Assembly: GCA_947174365.1 (NCBI GenBank)
Contig: CAMWIR010000001.1
Location: 9,100-73,099 of the forward strand
Origin: an uncultured Ruminococcus sp.
Lineage (GTDB): Bacteria; Bacillota; Clostridia; Oscillospirales; Ruminococcaceae
DNA: 64,000 bases
Direction of reading: 5' to 3'
Position 1 is the first letter of the stretch. Every line of letters begins with the position of its first letter. Positions 1 through 18,383 of the stretch are shown here, one piece after another. The notes beneath the pieces are model-generated. The model had not been told where the DNA came from. It made no database searches and saw only the letters and a program-made list of their open reading frames with translations. The position numbers and the translations under genes were made by a program.

Positions 1-552
1 CTCGGGGAAAAATGCAACACTGAAAAAGCCTTCATCCCAAACCGTCAGGCTTTTAAGCCCGGGCAGCCTTGCATCGGACAGTTTATACATATTCATGTAT
101 GAAGGGCTGCCGCCGCCGCCTAATGTTATACGTTCCAGACTTTCCAAACCGTTTAGCAGGCTGAAATCGGTATCCTCGGGCAAAGGCAGCCCAAGGCCCA
201 AAGATTTAAGATTTTTGTAATTGGCAAGATCCCGCAGGTCGTCATCTGTAGGATATCCCAAGCCGACATATTCCTCATCATACTTTCCGTCAGCCTCGGA
301 AATTGTCTCTTCCGCCTCGGTTTCCGTGGGCACTTTTTCGCTTTCGCTGTAGGGCGTTTCGCTTTCACGGGGCGTTTCGGAGGGCTGCAAGCTCTGCTCC
401 GCAGAAGTGCAGGTGCAAGCCTGAACGATCTCGGAAGCGCTTGTCAAATCAGTTTCCGTAACTGCTGCTTCCGGAATATTTTCCGCCGCTTTTCCGCAGC
501 CGGATAATGCCATAATAACCGCCAGAGCTGCGCATATTTTTCTCTTTTTCAT
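1..552 (-). CDS. Lipoprotein with Glu/Thr/Ser-rich linker and LRR-like region (runs off the window start)
   Basis: Manual translation from ATG at 552: MKKRKICAALAVIMALSGCGK (lipobox LSGC), open to base 1, with LRR-like segments NLKSLGL, SLERITL, GLKSLTV. Not in the ORF track because no stop codon lies in the window. Confidence 0.8.
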   Translation of the reverse strand, partial: MKKRKICAALAVIMALSGCGKAAENIPEAAVTETDLTSASEIVQACTCTSAEQSLQPSETPRESETPYSESEKVPTETEAEETISEADGKYDEEYVGLGYPTDDDLRDLANYKNLKSLGLGLPLPEDTDFSLLNGLESLERITLGGGGSPSYMNMYKLSDARLPGLKSLTVWDEGFFSVAFFPE

Positions 553-628
553 AGAGCTTGCCTCCCTGCAATATTTACCGGGCTTTGAATTGTCACCTTC
601 AGCCCTTGTTATATTTTTATTCAACATA

Positions 629-734
629 ATTATACCACACTCATACCCAAAAAGTCAATGTTTTATTTGGAACGCACATAATATCATTAAAATTTACGTA
701 AGCCCTTGAAATATATCGGTGGAAATGTTATAAT
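629..734. promoter_or_regulatory. Divergent sigmaA-type promoters for the lipoprotein and the ABC operon
   Basis: Minus: TTGACT-18-TATAAT (658..629). Plus: TTGAAA-17-TATAAT (706..734). Confidence 0.6.
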
Positions 735-764
735 AAAATAAAGTAAACCGAAAAGAGGGAGAAT

Positions 765-1517
765 GTGAACGAGGTTTTAAAAGTAGAGGGTCTGTCGAAA
801 AGCTACAAAAAAGGCGTTCTGGCGGCGGACGAAGTCAGCTTCACGGTAGGAGAGGGGGAGATTTTCGCCCTGATAGGCCCTAACGGAGCGGGGAAAACCA
901 CCACAATAAGAATGATCTCCACCCTGATAAATCCCACAGGCGGTGACGCTTTTGTGGACGGCCACAGCGTTGTGAAAGAACCCGACAAGGTAAGAGAGTG
1001 CATTACATATCTGCCCGATGAGGCAGGGGCATACAAGAGCATGAAAGGGATAGACTATCTTTATTTTATGGCGGGGCTTTTTTCCACGGATAATGAGACA
1101 ATAGAAAAATATGTCCGCAGGGGCGTGGATATGTGCGGCCTGGGAGACAGACTGGAGGAAAAGATAGGAGGCTACTCCAGAGGAATGATAAGAAAGCTGC
1201 TTTTGTCAAGAGCAGTAATGACAAGACCCAAGCTTGCCATAATGGACGAGGCTACCTCGGGACTTGACGTTATAAATGCGCTGGATATCCGCAAGACCAT
1301 AAAAAAGCTTGCCAAAGAAGAGGGCATGAGCTTTCTGCTTTCCTCCCACAATATGCTGGAGATAGAATATGTTTCCGACAGAGTGGGCATAATGGCGCAT
1401 GGGCGGCTGATGGTCACGGGAACTATCGACGAGCTTAAATCCCGGTTCAATGCGGCGAATTTAGAGGAAGTTTTTGAAAGGACGGTGCAGGGGAATGAAG
1501 CTGGGCAATCTGTTTAA
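765..1517 (+). CDS. ABC-2 type exporter ATP-binding subunit (NatA-like)
   Basis: Walker A GPNGAGKTT, signature variant YSRGM, Walker B IMDEAT, H-loop SSH. Confidence 0.9.
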   Translation: MNEVLKVEGLSKSYKKGVLAADEVSFTVGEGEIFALIGPNGAGKTTTIRMISTLINPTGGDAFVDGHSVVKEPDKVRECITYLPDEAGAYKSMKGIDYLYFMAGLFSTDNETIEKYVRRGVDMCGLGDRLEEKIGGYSRGMIRKLLLSRAVMTRPKLAIMDEATSGLDVINALDIRKTIKKLAKEEGMSFLLSSHNMLEIEYVSDRVGIMAHGRLMVTGTIDELKSRFNAANLEEVFERTVQGNEAGQSV

Positions 1518-2832
1518 AAAGGAGATAAAGGAGCTGCTGTCGCCCCAGGCGATATTCTCCATAATATTCACCTGTCTGCTGTTTGTGATACTGGGGCAGT
1601 TTATGGGGGGCGTAATGGACGAGGCTATAAATAATTCCACAGTTAATATCCGCAATCTGGATAACTCGGAATTTACGGAAAAAATGCTTGCGGCGCTTCC
1701 CGACTACGGCGCAGACCCTGTTATAATAACCGAAGAGGGCAGCCTTGATGAACTGGGGCTGAAAAATCTGGTGATAATCCCCGAGGGATTCGGAGACAGC
1801 GTTGAAAAGGGCGGGGAAAAGATAAAACTCCAATGCGTCAGCCTTGTAAACGGCGGCGGACTTTCCTCCACTATGAGCAGTATGTCCGCATCATCGCTCA
1901 TCGGTTCGATCTACGATTATGTTGACGAGTACACAAGGACGGAGCGTTTGGAGCTTACGGAAGAAGAACTTTCTTTGCTTGACGAGCCTATGATATATGC
2001 GGAATACACAGAGGCAAACGGGAATACCGTTGAATTTTCGGCGAATATGCTCCAGTCGGTGCTTATGACCCAGTCCATGATAGCGCCTATGGCGGTGTTC
2101 TTTCTGGTAATGATGGCGGCGCAGATGATAATGACGGCGATATCCACGGAGAAGATCGACAAGACTCTGGAAACCCTCCTGAGCGCCCCTGTGTCAAGGC
2201 TTTCGGTGCTTATGGCGAAGCTGCTGGCAGCGCTGGTGGTGGCGCTTTTAAATGCGGCGACCATGATCGTGGGAATGCTTTTCTACATTCAGGGAATGAT
2301 CGGCAGCGCAGTGCAGGCAGAAATGGCAGACTTATCTGCGGCGGAAATGTCTGCTGACGGTATCTCGCAGGCGGCAGCGCTTTCGGAGCTGGGTATGTCG
2401 CTGTCCGCAGGGGATATAATATTGTTCGGGGTTCAGCTGTTTCTGACCATTGCCATAGGACTGTCCATATCGCTGATACTGGGAGCAATGGCGACTGATG
2501 TAAAAAGCGTTCAGACTCTTACGCTGCCTGTTATGATGATGACAATGATCCCCTTTTTCCTTACCATGTTTGCGGATGTTAACAGCCTTTCCCCCGTGCC
2601 GAGGCTTGTTATGTACCTTATTCCGTTCACTCATACCTATACCGCCCTTAACAACATAATGTTCGGGCATATGGGAATTTTCTGGGGCGGACTTGTTTAT
2701 CAGCTGATATTCTTTCTGGTATGTATGTACATGGCGGTCAAGATGTTTACCACAGACAGGCTTTTTACCATGTCATTTTCTTTGGATAACCGAAAACCAA
2801 AGGGCAGAAGCCGTGAAAAGACAGCGGAATAA
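1495..2832 (+). CDS. ABC-2 type exporter permease (NatB-like)
   Basis: N-terminal LFKKEIKELL plus TM, extracytoplasmic domain, EK..TLETLLSAPVSR motif and several C-terminal TM helices. Overlaps the ATPase gene; start moved to ATG 1495. Confidence 0.85.
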   Translation: MKLGNLFKKEIKELLSPQAIFSIIFTCLLFVILGQFMGGVMDEAINNSTVNIRNLDNSEFTEKMLAALPDYGADPVIITEEGSLDELGLKNLVIIPEGFGDSVEKGGEKIKLQCVSLVNGGGLSSTMSSMSASSLIGSIYDYVDEYTRTERLELTEEELSLLDEPMIYAEYTEANGNTVEFSANMLQSVLMTQSMIAPMAVFFLVMMAAQMIMTAISTEKIDKTLETLLSAPVSRLSVLMAKLLAALVVALLNAATMIVGMLFYIQGMIGSAVQAEMADLSAAEMSADGISQAAALSELGMSLSAGDIILFGVQLFLTIAIGLSISLILGAMATDVKSVQTLTLPVMMMTMIPFFLTMFADVNSLSPVPRLVMYLIPFTHTYTALNNIMFGHMGIFWGGLVYQLIFFLVCMYMAVKMFTTDRLFTMSFSLDNRKPKGRSREKTAE

Positions 2833-2880
2833 ATCTCCCCTGCCAGTAATGTCAGCAATGTCAGTAAAGGATTTTATATT

Positions 2881-3162
2881 ATGAAATTACACGAACCCTA
2901 TGAACCGAAGCTGAGAAAAAATTATATGCTTGCTGCTGCTGCTGCCGTTTTTGCGGCGGCAGCGGCGACGCTTTGGTTTTTTCACGATAAATTATCATTA
3001 AACACGGGGACTCTTTTCATCATTTCGGGAACGGCGATATTTTCGGTCATACTGACCTTCATAAATTACAAGAGGAAAAAGGAAAATTTTCTGAAAGCCA
3101 AGGAGCTTTCGGAAAAGCAGAATGACATAGGAAAAGACAAGGGAAACGAAATATTTTTTTAA
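2881..3162 (+). CDS. Small two-TM hypothetical membrane protein
   Basis: 93-aa ORF with two hydrophobic helices and a basic tail, co-oriented with the ABC genes. Confidence 0.65.
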   Translation: MKLHEPYEPKLRKNYMLAAAAAVFAAAAATLWFFHDKLSLNTGTLFIISGTAIFSVILTFINYKRKKENFLKAKELSEKQNDIGKDKGNEIFF

Positions 3163-3366
3163 GCGGCGTTATGATTCTGCTGTACGGTAACTTTAAAATG
3201 CATAACCGTTTATACCCTCACGGCTCTTGCGGTCTGCATATCCTTTTATCATATTATCATATAAAATACACATTTGAGTGATATAATATCATTAATTAAA
3301 GAGCATTATGGATTCGGGAAACGCCCGTCAGCGGGATTTTTCCAATAAACCGAAAGGGGTAAAAAA

Positions 3367-4050
3367 ATGTCGGAGAAAAAAATTCTTATTGTAGACGATG
3401 AAAAAAATATCCGCAATGTTATCAGCGAATACGCAAAGTTCGACGGATTTCTCACCGCCGAAGCGGAGGACGGTATGGCGGCTGTGGAAATGTGCCGCAA
3501 TGAGGACTACGACCTTATTATCATGGACATTATGATGCCGAAGCTGGACGGCTACTCCGCCGTGCGGGAAATACGAAAGACAAAGCAGATACCTGTGATA
3601 ATGCTTTCCGCAAGAGGAGAGGAATACGACAAGCTCTTCGGCTTTGAACTGGGTGTGGACGATTACGTTACAAAGCCCTTTTCCCCAAAGGAACTGCTGG
3701 CAAGAATAAGAGCTGTAATAAAAAGAAGCAGCGGCGGAAAGGACAGCCCCGGAGAGCGGCTTAAATTCGAGGGATTGGAAATAAATATGGCAGGCAGAGA
3801 GGTCATAGTCGACGGCAAGCCCGCAGCCCTTACTCCGAAAGAATACGACCTGCTGTTCTACCTTGTGCGCAGCAAGGGTATTGCCCTTTCAAGAGAAAAA
3901 CTTCTGGAAGAGGTCTGGGGATATGATTTTTACGGGGACGACCGCACAGTGGACACGCACATAAAAATGCTGCGGAACTCTTTGGGAGAATACCGCAAAT
4001 TTATCGTGACCCTCAGGGGAATGGGCTATAAATTCGATGCGGGAAGATAA
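3367..4050 (+). CDS. OmpR/PhoB-family response regulator
   Basis: REC domain (IVDDE, IMDIMMP, DDYVTKPF) plus winged-helix RTVDTHIK..LR...RGMGY. Confidence 0.95.
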   Translation: MSEKKILIVDDEKNIRNVISEYAKFDGFLTAEAEDGMAAVEMCRNEDYDLIIMDIMMPKLDGYSAVREIRKTKQIPVIMLSARGEEYDKLFGFELGVDDYVTKPFSPKELLARIRAVIKRSSGGKDSPGERLKFEGLEINMAGREVIVDGKPAALTPKEYDLLFYLVRSKGIALSREKLLEEVWGYDFYGDDRTVDTHIKMLRNSLGEYRKFIVTLRGMGYKFDAGR

Positions 4051-5545
4051 AAAAACAGCGGAAAGATCCGCCGCAGAAGAGATAAGAAACGAAAAGCGGC
4101 GGGAGCGTTTGACGGATATAGGAAGATCCCTGCGCAGCGTCCGCTTTACGGTGTGGATATATTTTGCCATATTCATCACCAGCATACTGGTGCTTATATG
4201 GGTCTCCTTTATCGTGTCCCTGGAGGCGACCTACCGCACGAAAAAAACCAGCGACATCACATCTCTTGCAAACTACATTCTGACCGAATGGGCTGACCAG
4301 GGATTTACCTCGGATACTCTTGACAGGCTTGCCCATGATAATGAAATGTGCGTTTTGCTCCAGGACAGATACGGGCTTACCCTCTATTCCTATGACGTAA
4401 TGGAGCGCAACTGCGTGCTCCATGGGTTTATGAACTTCGGAGAAATTTCCGAATACCGCCGCCTTGCCACGAACAGCGACAAGGGCATATATTACGCCGA
4501 GCTTATCAATACCCGCTTCGGTACAAACACCCTGCTGTTCGCCATGGTAATAGGAGATAAAAGCGACCCCGGAGGGTATCTTTTTCTGAACACATCATTG
4601 GAACCGCTTGAATCAACAGTCTCTATCCTGCGGGTGCAGATGTTCCAGGTGACCTTGTCTATGATGGTGCTGGGCTTCGGCATTTCCATTTTCCTGTCAC
4701 GGCTTATCTCAACGCCCCTTATCCGCATAACCAAATCCGCCGAAAAGCTTGCCCAAGGGGACTATAACGTTAAATTCAACGGCAAGGGCTATACGGAAAC
4801 GGAAAAGCTGGCGGACACCCTTAACTACGCCTCCAATGAAATAACCAAAATAGACACCATGCGCCGCGACCTTATGGCAAACATTTCCCACGACCTGCGC
4901 ACACCTCTTACCATGGTAAAGGCCTATGCGGAAATGGTACGCGACCTGTCGGGAGACGATCCCGAAAAGAGGAATGAACACCTTGGGATAATCATTGAGG
5001 AAAGCGACCGTCTGGCGGCGCTGGTAAACGACATTATGGATCTTACTAAGCTGGAGAGCGGCGCAGCCCCGTTGTCTCCCGAGCTTTTCTGCGTGGGAGA
5101 CAGACTCCGCGAGATAATGACCCGATACACCCTGCTTTCCGAGCGGGACGGCTACAACTTCTACATCAGTGTAAATGAGGACGTCTGGGCAGAGGCAGAC
5201 CTGATAAAATTCGACCAGGTCATCTACAATCTTGTAAACAATGCCGTCAACTATTCGGGAGAGGAAAAGAGCATTTACGTAATGCAGACCGCCACCGCAA
5301 AAACCGTGGAAATAACCGTTACCGACACAGGCAGCGGCATATCACCCGAGCTGTTGCCTCTTATATTTGACCGCTACTACCGTGCGGAAAAGCATAAGCG
5401 TGAGGTAATAGGCACGGGACTCGGCCTCAGCATTGTAAAGCAGATCTTCATACTTCACGGCTTTAAATTCGGCGTAAGATCGGAAGAAGGCGTGGGAAGC
5501 ACCTTTTGGTTTGAGATGGAGCGAAAGCAGCATAAATCGGGCTGA
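4037..5545 (+). CDS. Membrane sensor histidine kinase (HAMP-HisKA-HATPase)
   Basis: Two TM helices, HAMP, H-box NISHDLRTPL, N-box NLVNNAVNYS, G boxes DTGSGI and GTGLGL. Overlaps the response regulator. Confidence 0.95.
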   Translation: MREDKKTAERSAAEEIRNEKRRERLTDIGRSLRSVRFTVWIYFAIFITSILVLIWVSFIVSLEATYRTKKTSDITSLANYILTEWADQGFTSDTLDRLAHDNEMCVLLQDRYGLTLYSYDVMERNCVLHGFMNFGEISEYRRLATNSDKGIYYAELINTRFGTNTLLFAMVIGDKSDPGGYLFLNTSLEPLESTVSILRVQMFQVTLSMMVLGFGISIFLSRLISTPLIRITKSAEKLAQGDYNVKFNGKGYTETEKLADTLNYASNEITKIDTMRRDLMANISHDLRTPLTMVKAYAEMVRDLSGDDPEKRNEHLGIIIEESDRLAALVNDIMDLTKLESGAAPLSPELFCVGDRLREIMTRYTLLSERDGYNFYISVNEDVWAEADLIKFDQVIYNLVNNAVNYSGEEKSIYVMQTATAKTVEITVTDTGSGISPELLPLIFDRYYRAEKHKREVIGTGLGLSIVKQIFILHGFKFGVRSEEGVGSTFWFEMERKQHKSG

Positions 5546-5548
5546 AAT

Positions 5549-5606
5549 AAAAAAGAGGCAAGATGTTTACAGGAGAATCCTTAAAACATCTTGCCTTTTG
5601 TTTCTT
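5549..5606. repeat. CAAGAGGCAAGA hairpin element (family B, copy 1); probable bidirectional terminator
   Basis: AAAAGAGGCAAGATGTTT...AAACATCTTGCCTTTT between convergent genes. Confidence 0.75.
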
Positions 5607-5619
5607 TGCAAGCCTCCGG

Positions 5620-6681
5620 TCACCATTTATCCGTCGATCTGTCCTCGGGCAGCACAGGCGTTATCGCCGCAATTGCCACCTCTATCTGCTTGTCGTCGGG
5701 CTCTTTTGTGGTTATCCGCTGAAGCCACAGCCCGGGAGCGGAAATTATCCTTGTGAAAATATTATCCACACGCCCCGCCAGCTTTATAAGCTCATATCCG
5801 ACCGAGGTTTCCACAGGCAGGAGAAGCAGCTGCATACCGAACCGCTTAAATACATTGTCCCATGGGAGGAATATCCCTATGGCAATGCCGAGAAGAATTA
5901 TCAGCATAATAAAGCTTGTGCCGCAGCGGGGGTGGAAACGGGTCTGCTTTTTTACATTCTCCACCGTCAGCGGCAGACCAGCCTCATAGCAGGCTATGGT
6001 CTTGTGCTCCGCCCCGTGGTATCTGAATGTCCTCGCCATTTCTTTCATATTGGATATGACCCACATATACCCCACCAGCAGACAAAGCTTGATGATCCCC
6101 TCAACTATCGCCTTTAAAATATCCGGTGCACCCAGCTTACCTAGAAGCCCCGATATAAGAGCAGGGAAGAACTTTACTGCGCATACGGCGATTATGCAGC
6201 TTACCACACTCATTACTATCATTAACGTATTCATTACCTCTTTGCCGTTTTCCCCCTCAATGGCGGACTCCAGCTTTTTCATGGGCTTTGTGTTGTAAAG
6301 CCATTCTTCAAATTTTGAAAGCTCTTCCTCTTCATCATCGCCGTCCTCTGCGTCCATTTGCTTCTGAGAGGACTTCATTATGCATTTTGCCCCGTCCGCC
6401 AGTGAAGAGATAAAGTTAAAACAGCCCCTTATAAACGGAGCTTTTACATACCACGGAGCATTGTCACCGTTGTTTACCGCCCATGTCTCAACGTCGATAC
6501 TCCCGTCGGGCAGGCGGCACGCCATGGCGGCAATGCCCACGCCCTTCATCATTATGCCCTCGATAAGAGCCTGTCCGCCTATCTTCGACTTTATAGGCTC
6601 ATTTGCAGCCTCCGCCGCAGGAGTATCCGAGGGTTCTCCCTGTAAGTCTGTCTGCTGATTTTCCGAATCAATGCTCTTCAT
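5620..6681 (-). CDS. DUF1385-family membrane protein (putative metal-dependent enzyme)
   Basis: Motifs IGGQALIEGIMM, YHGAEHKTI, RFHPRCGTSF, LWLQRITTKEPDDKQIEVAI. Confidence 0.9.
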   Translation of the reverse strand: MKSIDSENQQTDLQGEPSDTPAAEAANEPIKSKIGGQALIEGIMMKGVGIAAMACRLPDGSIDVETWAVNNGDNAPWYVKAPFIRGCFNFISSLADGAKCIMKSSQKQMDAEDGDDEEEELSKFEEWLYNTKPMKKLESAIEGENGKEVMNTLMIVMSVVSCIIAVCAVKFFPALISGLLGKLGAPDILKAIVEGIIKLCLLVGYMWVISNMKEMARTFRYHGAEHKTIACYEAGLPLTVENVKKQTRFHPRCGTSFIMLIILLGIAIGIFLPWDNVFKRFGMQLLLLPVETSVGYELIKLAGRVDNIFTRIISAPGLWLQRITTKEPDDKQIEVAIAAITPVLPEDRSTDKW

Positions 6682-16282: not shown

Positions 16283-16996
16283 ATGCCCGAAATAACGCCC
16301 ATTGCGGTCACCCGGAATGATTTTGACGAGAAATTCGGCATACCAAGGCAGGCGGGGCTGTGCAGCAGTGTTTCAAGGATAGTTTTCCTGCCCGGATACC
16401 GTGATCCCGATTCGCTGAGAGGGCTGGAGGGCTTTTCCCACATCTGGCTGCTGTGGGAATTCGGAGAGGCGAAAATGCACGGCAAATGGTCGCCCACGGT
16501 GCGTCCTCCGAGGCTTGGAGGAAATAAGCGGGTGGGGGTGTTTGCCACACGCTCGCCCTTTCGTCCCAATTCCATAGGGCTTTCTTCGGTAAGGCTTCTG
16601 GAGATTCGTCACGGCACGCCCGATGGGTCTGTGCTATACGTATCGGGAGCGGATATGATGAACGGCACGAATATATATGACATAAAACCCTATCTTGCCT
16701 ACACCGATTCTCACCCCGAGGCGCTGTCGGGCTTTGCGCTGACGGAGGGAGGAAGGCTGTCTGTGGATATTCCCGAAGATATTGCAGGGCTGTTACCCGC
16801 GGACAAGCTGCAAGCCCTTAAAGAGATACTGTCACAAGATCCCCGTCCCCAGTATCAGAATGACTCTGCAAGAGTCTACACCATGGCATACGGGGGAATG
16901 GATGTGAGTTTTGTTGTTGAGGGGGGTTGTGTAAGGGTCACAGATGTTAAAGCAAAAATTAATTGCAAAATGCAAAAAATTTGTAAGCCGAAATAA
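16283..16996 (+). CDS. trmO: tRNA m6t6A37 methyltransferase TrmO/TsaA
   Basis: FGIPRQAGL, GLEGFSHIWLLWEF, TVRPPRLGGNKRVGVFATRSPFRPNSIGLS, DIKPY. Confidence 0.92.
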   Translation: MPEITPIAVTRNDFDEKFGIPRQAGLCSSVSRIVFLPGYRDPDSLRGLEGFSHIWLLWEFGEAKMHGKWSPTVRPPRLGGNKRVGVFATRSPFRPNSIGLSSVRLLEIRHGTPDGSVLYVSGADMMNGTNIYDIKPYLAYTDSHPEALSGFALTEGGRLSVDIPEDIAGLLPADKLQALKEILSQDPRPQYQNDSARVYTMAYGGMDVSFVVEGGCVRVTDVKAKINCKMQKICKPK

Positions 16997-17049
16997 TTTT
17001 GATTTACGCAAAAAAATCCGGCGCACAGCACCGAAAACGTTTTTTTCTG

Positions 17050-17077
17050 ACCTCTTACCTATAACATCTAACCTCTT
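17050..17077. repeat. Heptamer tandem element (family A, copy 2)
   Basis: ACCTCTT ACCTATA ACATCTA ACCTCTT. Confidence 0.7.
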
Positions 17078-17137
17078 AATGGGCAATGTACACAAAAATA
17101 CTCTCCAATATTTTTATATTTCAAACGTTTACGCCTC

Positions 17138-17166
17138 TTGACATTTCTTTCCGAGTATGATATACT
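17138..17166 (+). promoter_or_regulatory. Near-consensus extended -10 sigmaA promoter with no downstream ORF
   Basis: TTGACA-17-TATACT with TG extension. Confidence 0.7.
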
Positions 17167-17334
17167 TATACTTGCAACAAATTATTGATGCGGCCAACTA
17201 ATAGAACCTGACCGTGTTATGGCTTGCCGTGAATGTTACAATCTGTATAACTTCTTATTTGCAGTACATTTTGTATAAAAATCTGTACAAAATTTGTGCA
17301 AGTATACAAAATGTAAAAAGTTGCCTTACAGATA

Positions 17335-17363
17335 TTGACAAATCCGGAAAAATGAGTTATAAT
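17335..17363 (+). promoter_or_regulatory. Perfect-consensus sigmaA promoter of a candidate sRNA
   Basis: TTGACA aatccggaaaaatgagt TATAAT (17-nt spacer). Confidence 0.85.
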
Positions 17364-17368
17364 ATAAT

Positions 17369-17491
17369 TGATGTTAAGGTTCTTATATTCTATGTTAACA
17401 TCCGTTTTGTTGTCTCCTTTCTTTTGTTCTACACATAATGATTTTATGTGATTTGATTTTCTCGGCAGGGCTTAGTCCCTGCTATTTTTTT
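17369..17491 (+). ncRNA. Candidate ~120-nt trans-acting small RNA with anti-SD tract
   Basis: 5' stem GATGTTAA/TTAACATC, single-stranded GTCTCCTTTCTTTT, stem CACATAA/TTATGTG, terminator GCAGGG/CCCTGC plus T-run. No credible ORF. Confidence 0.65.
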
Positions 17492-17548
17492 GCTCTCTTA
17501 TAAGCCGGTTTTTTACGGTTAGTAAATTTCGGAAAATATTCAGTGATT

Positions 17549-17636
17549 AAACGCCGCTTGGGCTGTTTTCCCCTCATGCGCCGAGAAAGCAAAGCCGTTA
17601 CCTTGCGCATGAGGAGAGAAAAGCACAGCGGCGTTT
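17549..17636. repeat. 88-nt imperfect long hairpin
   Basis: AAACGCCGCT...TTTTCCCCTCATGCGC / GCGCATGAGGAGAGAAAA...AGCGGCGTTT. Confidence 0.75.
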
Positions 17637-17819
17637 GAGCATAAAATTATCCTTGTGCATTATCTCTTATATAACAGTGCACAGCACAAAATGCCTATAA
17701 ATCGCCGATTCTCGCTGTGTGTCCTATGGAATTCGGAGATTTGACGGGCTTTTCCCGGTTTGTGTCCTGTACATTTTTGCGTTTGGAGTGTTATAATAAG
17801 GTTGATGAAAGGAGGGCTG

Positions 17820-18383
17820 ATGATGGATCAGAAAAAAATCGGAGGATTTCTGAAAACGCTCAGAAAAGAAAAGCAGATGACTCAGGAGCAGCTGGCGGAA
17901 AAGCTGGGAGTGTCGAACAGGAGCGTTTCCCGGTGGGAGAACGGAGTCAATATGCCCGACTTCGATCTGGTCATTGAGCTTGCAAATTTGTATAACGTCA
18001 GTATCGATGAGATACTGGACGGCGAAAGGAGAATGGATATGATCGACAAGGAAACCGAGAAAACATTATTAAAGGTGGCTGAATACGAAAACAGCGGCAA
18101 TGAAAAATTTACAAAACAGCTTTGCGGGCTGTTTATCGGGGCTACGCTGTCCTTTGTGCTTTACGGCGTTCTGGAATTTATGGGGCTGGCGGATAAGCCC
18201 GGGTATTCGGCGCTGGCAAGCTATGCTATGGGGATAGTTTTTGGGGCGCTGCTAGTGGGGGTGCTGTATACGAGCCGTTATGGACGTAAAATTCAGGCGG
18301 CTAAGGCGAGATTTTTGGCAAGAATAAAAATGAGTGAGGGTGCGTCTCAAAAAAGTGCGGACGGATTTGGGGAGGAGGCTTGA
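17820..18383 (+). CDS. XRE-family HTH regulator with C-terminal membrane helices
   Basis: IGGFLKTLRKEKQMTQEQLAEKLGVSNRSVSRWENG, then two TM segments; RBS GAAAGGAGG. Confidence 0.9.
   Translation: MMDQKKIGGFLKTLRKEKQMTQEQLAEKLGVSNRSVSRWENGVNMPDFDLVIELANLYNVSIDEILDGERRMDMIDKETEKTLLKVAEYENSGNEKFTKQLCGLFIGATLSFVLYGVLEFMGLADKPGYSALASYAMGIVFGALLVGVLYTSRYGRKIQAAKARFLARIKMSEGASQKSADGFGEEA

Follow-up and report, generated by a model that had tools for sequence, protein, structure and literature searches.

The window analyzed here, a stretch of 64,000 nucleotides from the genome of an uncultured Ruminococcus sp., contains a compact unit on the forward strand that is flanked by trmO and a gene for an XRE-type protein and has the layout of a small RNA (sRNA) gene. 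A sigma-70-type promoter, formed by TTGACA (17335-17340), a 17-nt spacer and TATAAT (17358-17363), matches the consensus in 12 of 12 positions and is the only such match in the 3.5 kb scanned. Transcription is predicted to start at approximately 17370, where the minimum free energy (MFE) fold and covariation place a 5'-terminal hairpin (17370-17402; arms 17370-17377 and 17395-17402). The hairpin leads directly into the tract CCGUUUUGUUGUCUCCUUUCUUUUGUUCUACACAUA (17402-17437), which was delineated by fold and conservation and is the proposed base-pairing interface; in the predicted fold, its first base, C17402, closes the hairpin, positions 17403-17431 are unpaired, and positions 17432-17437 belong to the 5' arm of a second small stem-loop (17432-17450). 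Within the tract, we distinguish a 26-mer core (17409-17434) and, inside the core, a sequence resembling an anti-Shine-Dalgarno (anti-SD) element, CUCCUUUC (CTCCTTTC in the DNA; 17414-17421). The unit ends with an intrinsic terminator detected by a terminator scan (17464-17491), with a GC-rich stem at 17464-17483 followed by a run of seven T residues. The predicted transcript (17370-17491, 122 nt) has an MFE of -26.1 kcal/mol (z = -3.8), and none of 200 shuffled sequences folds as well.

The initial annotation had reported a perfect TTGACA-17-TATAAT promoter, a 5' stem, an unpaired tract, a second stem and a terminator, and these features are all present at the coordinates given above, so the original observation is confirmed. 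The same applies to the claimed absence of a coding region, given that the sole open reading frame overlapping the unit has 27 codons and no SD sequence, and that no frame is conserved among relatives, and to the claimed complementarity to ribosome-binding sites: the sequence GAAAGGAG, the complement of CTCCTTTC, precedes the XRE gene (17807), nusG (20073), atpB (29373) and atpH (31223). The unit is present in a single copy in its own genome (3.0 Mb, GC content 46%), and a search of this genome for a long antisense partner yielded nothing beyond 12-17 nt. The assembly of this genome (G000) contains no rRNA genes.

Upstream of the promoter, at 17293-17310 on the forward strand, lies the inverted-repeat motif TTTGTGCAAGTATACAAA, with the consensus AAATTTGTGCA-N5-6-TACAAAA. 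A motif of this TTGTGCA type precedes the promoter in 94 of the 169 distinct units collected from relatives, compared with a background expectation of 0.015 per 110 nt, and its distance from the -35 hexamer falls into clusters at 32, 41-43, 52-54 and 86 nt, about one helical turn apart, suggesting that a transcription factor is bound there. The motif is likely to be a transcription factor site for the sRNA promoter, and it may resemble operators of the Rex or CRP/FNR type. Farther upstream, a second near-consensus promoter, TTGACA-17-TATACT, is located at 17138-17166, and no terminator separates it from the sRNA promoter. Like this second promoter, approximately 160 nt immediately ahead of the sRNA promoter (within 17138-17334) are conserved, in blocks, in the majority of species in the genus; a long hairpin at about 17272-17324 shows moderate pair support, and RNAalifold gave no convincing consensus. 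The segment 17138-17334 could encode an additional RNA or extend the sRNA into a longer isoform; alternatively, it could be regulatory DNA, to which the TTTGTGCA...TACAAA site would belong.

Comparison with related genomes shows a broad distribution of the unit within the family. The sRNA was identified in 22 of the 24 genomes of the same genus and, in a family-level search, in 142 of the 401 sampled genomes, representing 68 of 166 genera. A scan of one genome per species detected the exact 26-mer GTTGTCTCCTTTCTTTTGTTCTACAC in at least 120 genome records; the matches listed include Ruminococcus flavefaciens ATCC 19208, 007c and MA2007, Ruminococcus sp. YE71, Anaerotruncus sp. MC2020 and many metagenome-assembled genomes (MAGs) from rumen and gut. 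When up to three mismatches to the 26-mer were allowed, hits came from 16 of the 26 genomes sampled within the family, and from none of the 374 genomes that represented 29 further families of this order. Phage and plasmid records contained no match to the unit, and an origin from such elements was dropped from consideration.

When 22 species of the genus are aligned, a block of about 45 nt that surrounds the tract shows no variation, whereas divergence is seen in the flanks, the terminator and the loop of the hairpin. The tract CCGUUUUGUUGUCUCCUUUCUUUUGUUCUACACAUA itself is unchanged in these 22 species and essentially invariant over the 169 distinct copies, so that the conservation of the CU tract, which had been set in advance as a test of the proposal, is borne out. 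The elements that delimit the transcript are kept as well: a promoter of the form TTGACx-16..18-TATAAT (with at most three mismatches) occurs in 161 of the 169 distinct units, and a hairpin with a T-run terminator in all 169, with terminator stems that vary in sequence among relatives and retain complementarity. The predicted RNA has a median length of 122 nt (111-134 nt at the 10th and 90th percentiles of the 169 distinct units). Such conservation in relatives places the unit far beyond chance. The second stem fares differently from the other elements: it is found in the fold of the window, as originally described, but is a genus-specific feature that is absent outside close relatives; divergent members have no such stem, and in other genera its position is occupied only by an AU-rich spacer.

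The collection of homologs followed by a covariation analysis, which had been suggested as a check, shows that the 5' hairpin co-varies. In the alignment used (A1), the variable loops were excised, the arms were kept in register, and eight basal pairs were counted. Standard pairs are formed in 90.7% of the cells, compared with 79.0% in shuffled alignments, and in six of the eight pairs both partners have changed, with replacements such as G-C by A-U and A-U by G-C in the two closing pairs. Covariation is scored at 0.451 versus 0.224 in shuffles; none of 500 shuffled alignments reaches the real value, and controls in which the arms were slid score at most 0.13. The hairpin starts at the seventh nucleotide past the -10 hexamer, the expected transcription start, in 117 of the 124 type-A members. 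A different 5' hairpin is present in 32 of the 156 members, and 18 of these 32 variants carry a second CUCC or CCUC in the hairpin apex, compared with 2 of the 124 type-A members.

The unit was proposed at the outset to belong to no named RNA family, and searches at both stringent and permissive thresholds agree with this. At gathering scores, Rfam 15 yields only four tRNAs in the entire window and nothing on the sRNA unit; at E <= 10, only models of eukaryotic miRNAs and the like, at chance level, overlap the unit within 16950-17850. A tRNA or tRNA-like RNA is ruled out, given that ARAGORN found no such gene in 16900-17700 and no tRNA model matched at E <= 10. Nor did the sequence of the sRNA have a match in the literature or in the first 200 of the 408 supplementary files of a survey of structured RNAs in the human microbiome. 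With no paper or Rfam entry found, the unit appears to be a new family of a known kind: it is an independent, non-coding transcription unit that is conserved while its neighbors vary, the hallmarks of trans-encoded sRNAs. The proposal of a self-contained, non-coding RNA acting in trans is thus strongly supported by the conservation across the family, the variable neighborhoods, the covariation and the presence of terminators in 169 of 169 units. Very probably, the segment 17370-17491 on the forward strand is a real, previously undescribed regulatory RNA gene of about 120 bases.

To assess the tract as a pairing surface, we scored 2,867 putative initiation regions of this genome by an ungapped helix score with a cut-off of 30. 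The real tract reaches this score with 25 initiation regions, compared with 7.1 +/- 3.9 for shuffles that keep CUCC and 10.8 +/- 4.7 for shuffles that keep TCTCCTTTCT; none of the 60 shuffles of either kind reaches 25, and only 8 internal SD-like control windows score 30 or more with the real tract. This enrichment is modest (about 2- to 3-fold), and part of it arises because any anti-SD-like sequence fits SD regions. The fit has two sources: UUUC is complementary to the GAAA often found ahead of GGAG, and GUUGU and UUUUG can form pairs, G-U wobbles included, with the purine-rich spacer that leads to the start codon. The top predicted targets include an ABC ATPase, an AraC-type regulator, a transglutaminase-like membrane protein and a KH protein of the KhpA type (identified through Pfam), along with others identified by eye, namely a probable GrpE, dipicolinate synthase B, TrmL, NrdD, LysS and MurC. 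The target prediction that had been recommended was thus carried out in silico for initiation regions and gave many plausible matches to SD regions that do not form a coherent set; the scans of initiation regions in this genome revealed neither a functional theme among the top predicted targets nor an outstanding target. The best non-self site for the 26-mer in this genome pairs at 23 of 26 positions and lies inside a cupin gene upstream of trpB; we judged it to be a chance match.

Far more extensive complementarity is found in two relatives (loci L063, L196 and L198), where the leaders of operons with homologous genes contain tandem repeats of about 79 nt on the sense strand. Each repeat includes a site of 34-36 nt that is complementary to the whole tract CCGUUUUGUUGUCUCCUUUCUUUUGUUCUACACAUA with a single mismatch; the predicted duplexes comprise 34-36 bp with energies of -47 to -52 kcal/mol, and 25 of the 26 core positions are paired, versus 23 of 26 for the best site in the genome of the window. 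At L063, in a genome of another genus that also carries the sRNA, three tandem repeats of about 79 nt, in sense orientation, separate an NfeD-type gene from one that encodes a membrane-anchored protein. A scan of metagenomes revealed a similar array before a homologous gene (31% identity, no Pfam family), and on a longer contig the order is NfeD-like gene, DUF3784 gene, array, X1, a single site, the paralogue X2, a Band_7 gene and a gene with a transglutaminase core. A search for relatives of the array-linked protein returned only the protein itself, which belongs to no Pfam family. The array sites lie 33-46 nt upstream of start codons. As no promoter or terminator was found inside the arrays, the simplest reading is that they are transcribed together with the operon. 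Neither the array-bearing operon with its gene family nor any near-perfect partner site is present in the genome of the window.

The single mismatch of the array sites always falls where GGAG would be (GGAAGA, AGAAGA or GGCAGA), which indicates that these are not SD sites and that SD occlusion is not the mechanism at the arrays. The idea that the RNA acts by blocking SD sequences through an 8-nt anti-SD element therefore holds in part: the tract does better than shuffles at initiation regions, and some variants contain a second CUCC, but the conserved unit is the whole 36-nt tract, not only CUCCUUUC, and the near-perfect partner sites in relatives are not SD sites. The arrays could also be complementary because they derive from a copy of the sRNA gene in inverted orientation, rather than because pairing was selected for. 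Apart from the sites themselves, the array operon (L198, positions 1-6000; L063) encodes an NfeD-like protein, a DUF3784 protein, two membrane-anchored paralogues, a Band_7/flotillin-like protein and a transglutaminase-core protein, and one array of the purine-rich repeats of about 79 nt has been annotated by gene callers as a "gene" of 44 amino acids.

The best explanation of these observations, to which we assign a probability of roughly 70%, is that the unit encodes an sRNA of about 122 nt that pairs in trans through its invariant tract. A near-perfect sigma-70-type promoter and an intrinsic terminator, both belonging to the unit, would start and end its transcription, and the 5' hairpin, as 5' stem-loops do in other Firmicutes, probably shields the RNA from decay that depends on the 5' end. 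The invariant tract would be the working surface that pairs in trans with purine-rich segments of mRNAs. Most of the targeted segments are expected to be translation initiation regions, where CUCCUUUC would cover an SD sequence of the GAAAGGAG type and the U/G-rich arms flanking CUCCUUUC would cover the purine-rich spacer and an upstream A-tract; binding of the 30S subunit would be blocked at such regions, with lower translation and often lower mRNA stability as the expected outcome. In the relatives with arrays, the tract would pair with the dedicated leader sites of 34-36 nt, which could serve as strong targets or as decoys; these long sites could form duplexes of a size suitable for RNase III, or the sRNA could be titrated by them. 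The AU/U-rich tail together with the terminator would suit Hfq, and homologues of both Hfq and CsrA are encoded in this genome. In this scheme, we infer that the sRNA is transcribed and pairs in vivo, in which direction it regulates, that Hfq is involved and which genes of its own genome are targeted.

A wider reading, which we offer as tentative and on balance doubtful, casts the sRNA as a master regulator throughout the family that uses its entire 36-nt single strand for pairing, with a level set through the conserved upstream factor site and, in some species, with operon arrays that either titrate the sRNA or allow it to split and silence the operon by way of long duplexes. The array operon, in this reading, encodes membrane-microdomain proteins, namely NfeD, DUF3784, the two membrane-anchored proteins, the Band_7/flotillin-like protein and the transglutaminase-like protein.

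It appears unlikely that the RNA mainly binds or sequesters a protein, with the U/C-rich strand as a platform for Hfq, a KH-domain protein or a ribosomal protein. A platform of this kind would account for the 36 nucleotides that are invariant across more than 60 genera, a length in excess of typical seed requirements, and would be compatible with the presence of Hfq and a KhpA-type KH protein in this genome and with the fact that no dominant mRNA target emerges there. However, RNAs complementary to the entire tract exist naturally in relatives, and the order of bases in the tract fits initiation regions better than that of shuffles, both of which argue for pairing with RNA. The candidate proteins can be narrowed down as well: the tract contains no GGA motifs of the kind that CsrA binds, and a tblastn search of the whole genome (G000) with Bacillus subtilis CspB detected no cold-shock protein homologue at E < 0.01. 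Cold-shock proteins are the best-known binders of pyrimidine tracts, and the lack of a detectable homologue thus removes the foremost candidate.

The genes next to the sRNA change from clade to clade, and this bears on whether the unit could act in cis. A divergently oriented gene for pyruvate:ferredoxin oxidoreductase (PFOR) lies upstream in 33-40 loci, a gene for a highly conserved AAA_5 ATPase follows the unit in 19 loci, which belong entirely or almost entirely to the genus Ruminococcus, and in other loci a gene for an M16-type peptidase or metG adjoins the unit. No special complementarity to the tract was detected in the initiation regions of PFOR or any other recurrent neighbor, and the neighboring genes were dropped as targets for this reason. 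In 14 of the 21 loci inspected within the genus (L006-L017, L019 and L022), the AAA_5 ATPase (McrB/dynein type, 336 aa) is encoded just downstream of the sRNA, about 200-1250 nt from its core. The protein is unusually conserved, with 86-98% amino acid identity, compared with only about 77% identity for the intergenic DNA; in the genome of the window, the gene is found on another contig (C49:5472-6467).

In 14 species of the genus, the ATPase gene starts about 100-150 nt past the sRNA terminator, and this conserved proximity, together with the second promoter-like site and the conserved sequence upstream of the unit within the genus, would be expected if the unit were a leader or attenuator acting in cis on the downstream gene, or the 3' end of an upstream transcript. 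We regard this as highly improbable. The downstream gene differs between clades, and in the genome of the window the ATPase gene is on a separate contig; 161 of the 169 copies have a consensus promoter of their own and all 169 a terminator; the folds show no evident alternative antiterminator pairing, and no riboswitch or leader family matches. The variable context, in itself, already largely refutes a function in cis.

A still smaller probability is given to the unit being a leaderless mRNA for a small hydrophobic peptide, which in the window would be MLRFLYSMLTSVLLSPFFCSTHNDFM, starting from the ATG at 17371. An ATG does lie 1-2 nt past the predicted transcription start, and the frame is open through the core in the window and its nearest relatives. 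Over the 156 units compared, however, 29 have no 5'-proximal start codon and in 81 the frame ends ahead of the core; the other 46, which stay open into the core, are split over all three frames (24, 16 and 6). Moreover, the core shows no variation at third (synonymous) positions in the alignment of 22 species, and changes in loop length break the frame, so that a peptide-coding role can already be considered largely refuted. Finally, a hairpin followed by CUCCUUUCU, which is the end of the bacterial anti-SD tail, lends the RNA a superficial resemblance to the 3' tail of 16S rRNA, but that it mimics this tail as a decoy for a tail-recognizing factor or nuclease is hardly credible, since the tract reads UCUCC rather than CCUCC, its invariant part runs about 20 nt beyond any resemblance, and the existence of the complementary arrays points to pairing with RNA along the entire tract.

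An sRNA pairing in trans would place this unit beside several well-characterized regulators of Firmicutes. The cia-dependent csRNAs of Streptococcus (ccnA-E) are RNAs of about 90-150 nt in which 5' and terminator stem-loops flank a conserved unpaired region (PMC3091779); this region is complementary to the SD sequence and the start codon, and a block of translation initiation has been proposed and shown (PMC3091779, PMC4507080). The sRNA described here is likewise a self-contained unit from promoter to terminator, with two stem-loops around an unpaired region, and it has the same sequence of elements, namely a 5' stem-loop, an unpaired anti-SD region and a terminator stem-loop, a likeness of design only. 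The csRNAs belong to another order (Lactobacillales), occur as several siblings per genome and are controlled by CiaR, whereas the present sRNA is single-copy, has a different upstream motif, and contains a much longer invariant tract that reads UCUCC and not CCUCC. The upstream motif, TTTGTGCA-N5-6-TACAAA, presumably differs from the CiaR direct repeat. No sequence or covariance-model similarity to csRNAs was detected for the sRNA, which is distributed in Ruminococcaceae.

In Listeria monocytogenes, LhrC1-5 are RNAs of about 100 nt with exposed, redundant CU-rich motifs, placed in loops and single-stranded stretches, that pair with the ribosome-binding regions of several mRNAs (PMC4132741, PMC5880928). 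The redundancy of these motifs is paralleled by the second CUCC in some variants of the sRNA, but LhrC RNAs have short UCCC motifs, are multicopy and depend on LisR, whereas the sRNA has one long tract and a single copy; it contains one UCUCC tract and no UCCC, and does not form a multicopy tandem. The RsaE/RoxS RNAs of Bacillales are unusually conserved and use C-rich unpaired motifs to pair with the SD regions of many metabolic mRNAs. These loop motifs are CCCC, at least two of them exposed, whereas no CCCC occurs in 17370-17491, and the taxonomic range is different. For the arrays, the closest parallel is found in enterobacteria, where the chbB-chbC intergenic region traps ChiX, so that an extended complement inside an operon acts on a constitutive sRNA. 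The arrays in L063 and L198 are similarly placed between DUF3784/NfeD-type genes and downstream genes; in contrast to the chb site, these putative decoy sites are 34-36 nt long and are repeated up to three times in units of about 79 nt. Taken together, the sRNA is best classified as a new family that probably works like the streptococcal csRNAs or the LhrC RNAs of Listeria.

Given that it is single-copy and has a 36-nt tract that is invariant across more than 60 genera, the sRNA is likely to be a central regulator in Ruminococcaceae; few bacterial sRNAs show invariance to this degree. R. flavefaciens and other members of this group are key fiber degraders in the rumen and gut, in which RNA-based regulation is almost unknown, and the present analysis offers a defined gene, a pairing surface, a candidate upstream site and natural sites of full-length complementarity. 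A new family in an RNA database would improve the annotation of thousands of MAGs from rumen and gut.

Two minor features accompany the sRNA. Between its terminator and the XRE-type gene, positions 17549-17643 form a long, nearly perfect inverted repeat (AAACGCCGCT...AGCGGCGTTT) that recurs widely in close relatives (G011 and G008) and once more in this genome; because it recurs at many places, it looks like a dispersed palindromic element similar to REP sequences. In addition, a second, diverged copy of the core is present in some genomes, at L101 (minus strand, around 7293) and at G642:C3:126307-126332, with UUCCUUUCUUUUGUUCUACAC behind a GC-rich hairpin and GTTGTTTCCTTTCTTTTGTTCTATAT as examples, and such copies may represent paralogous sRNAs.
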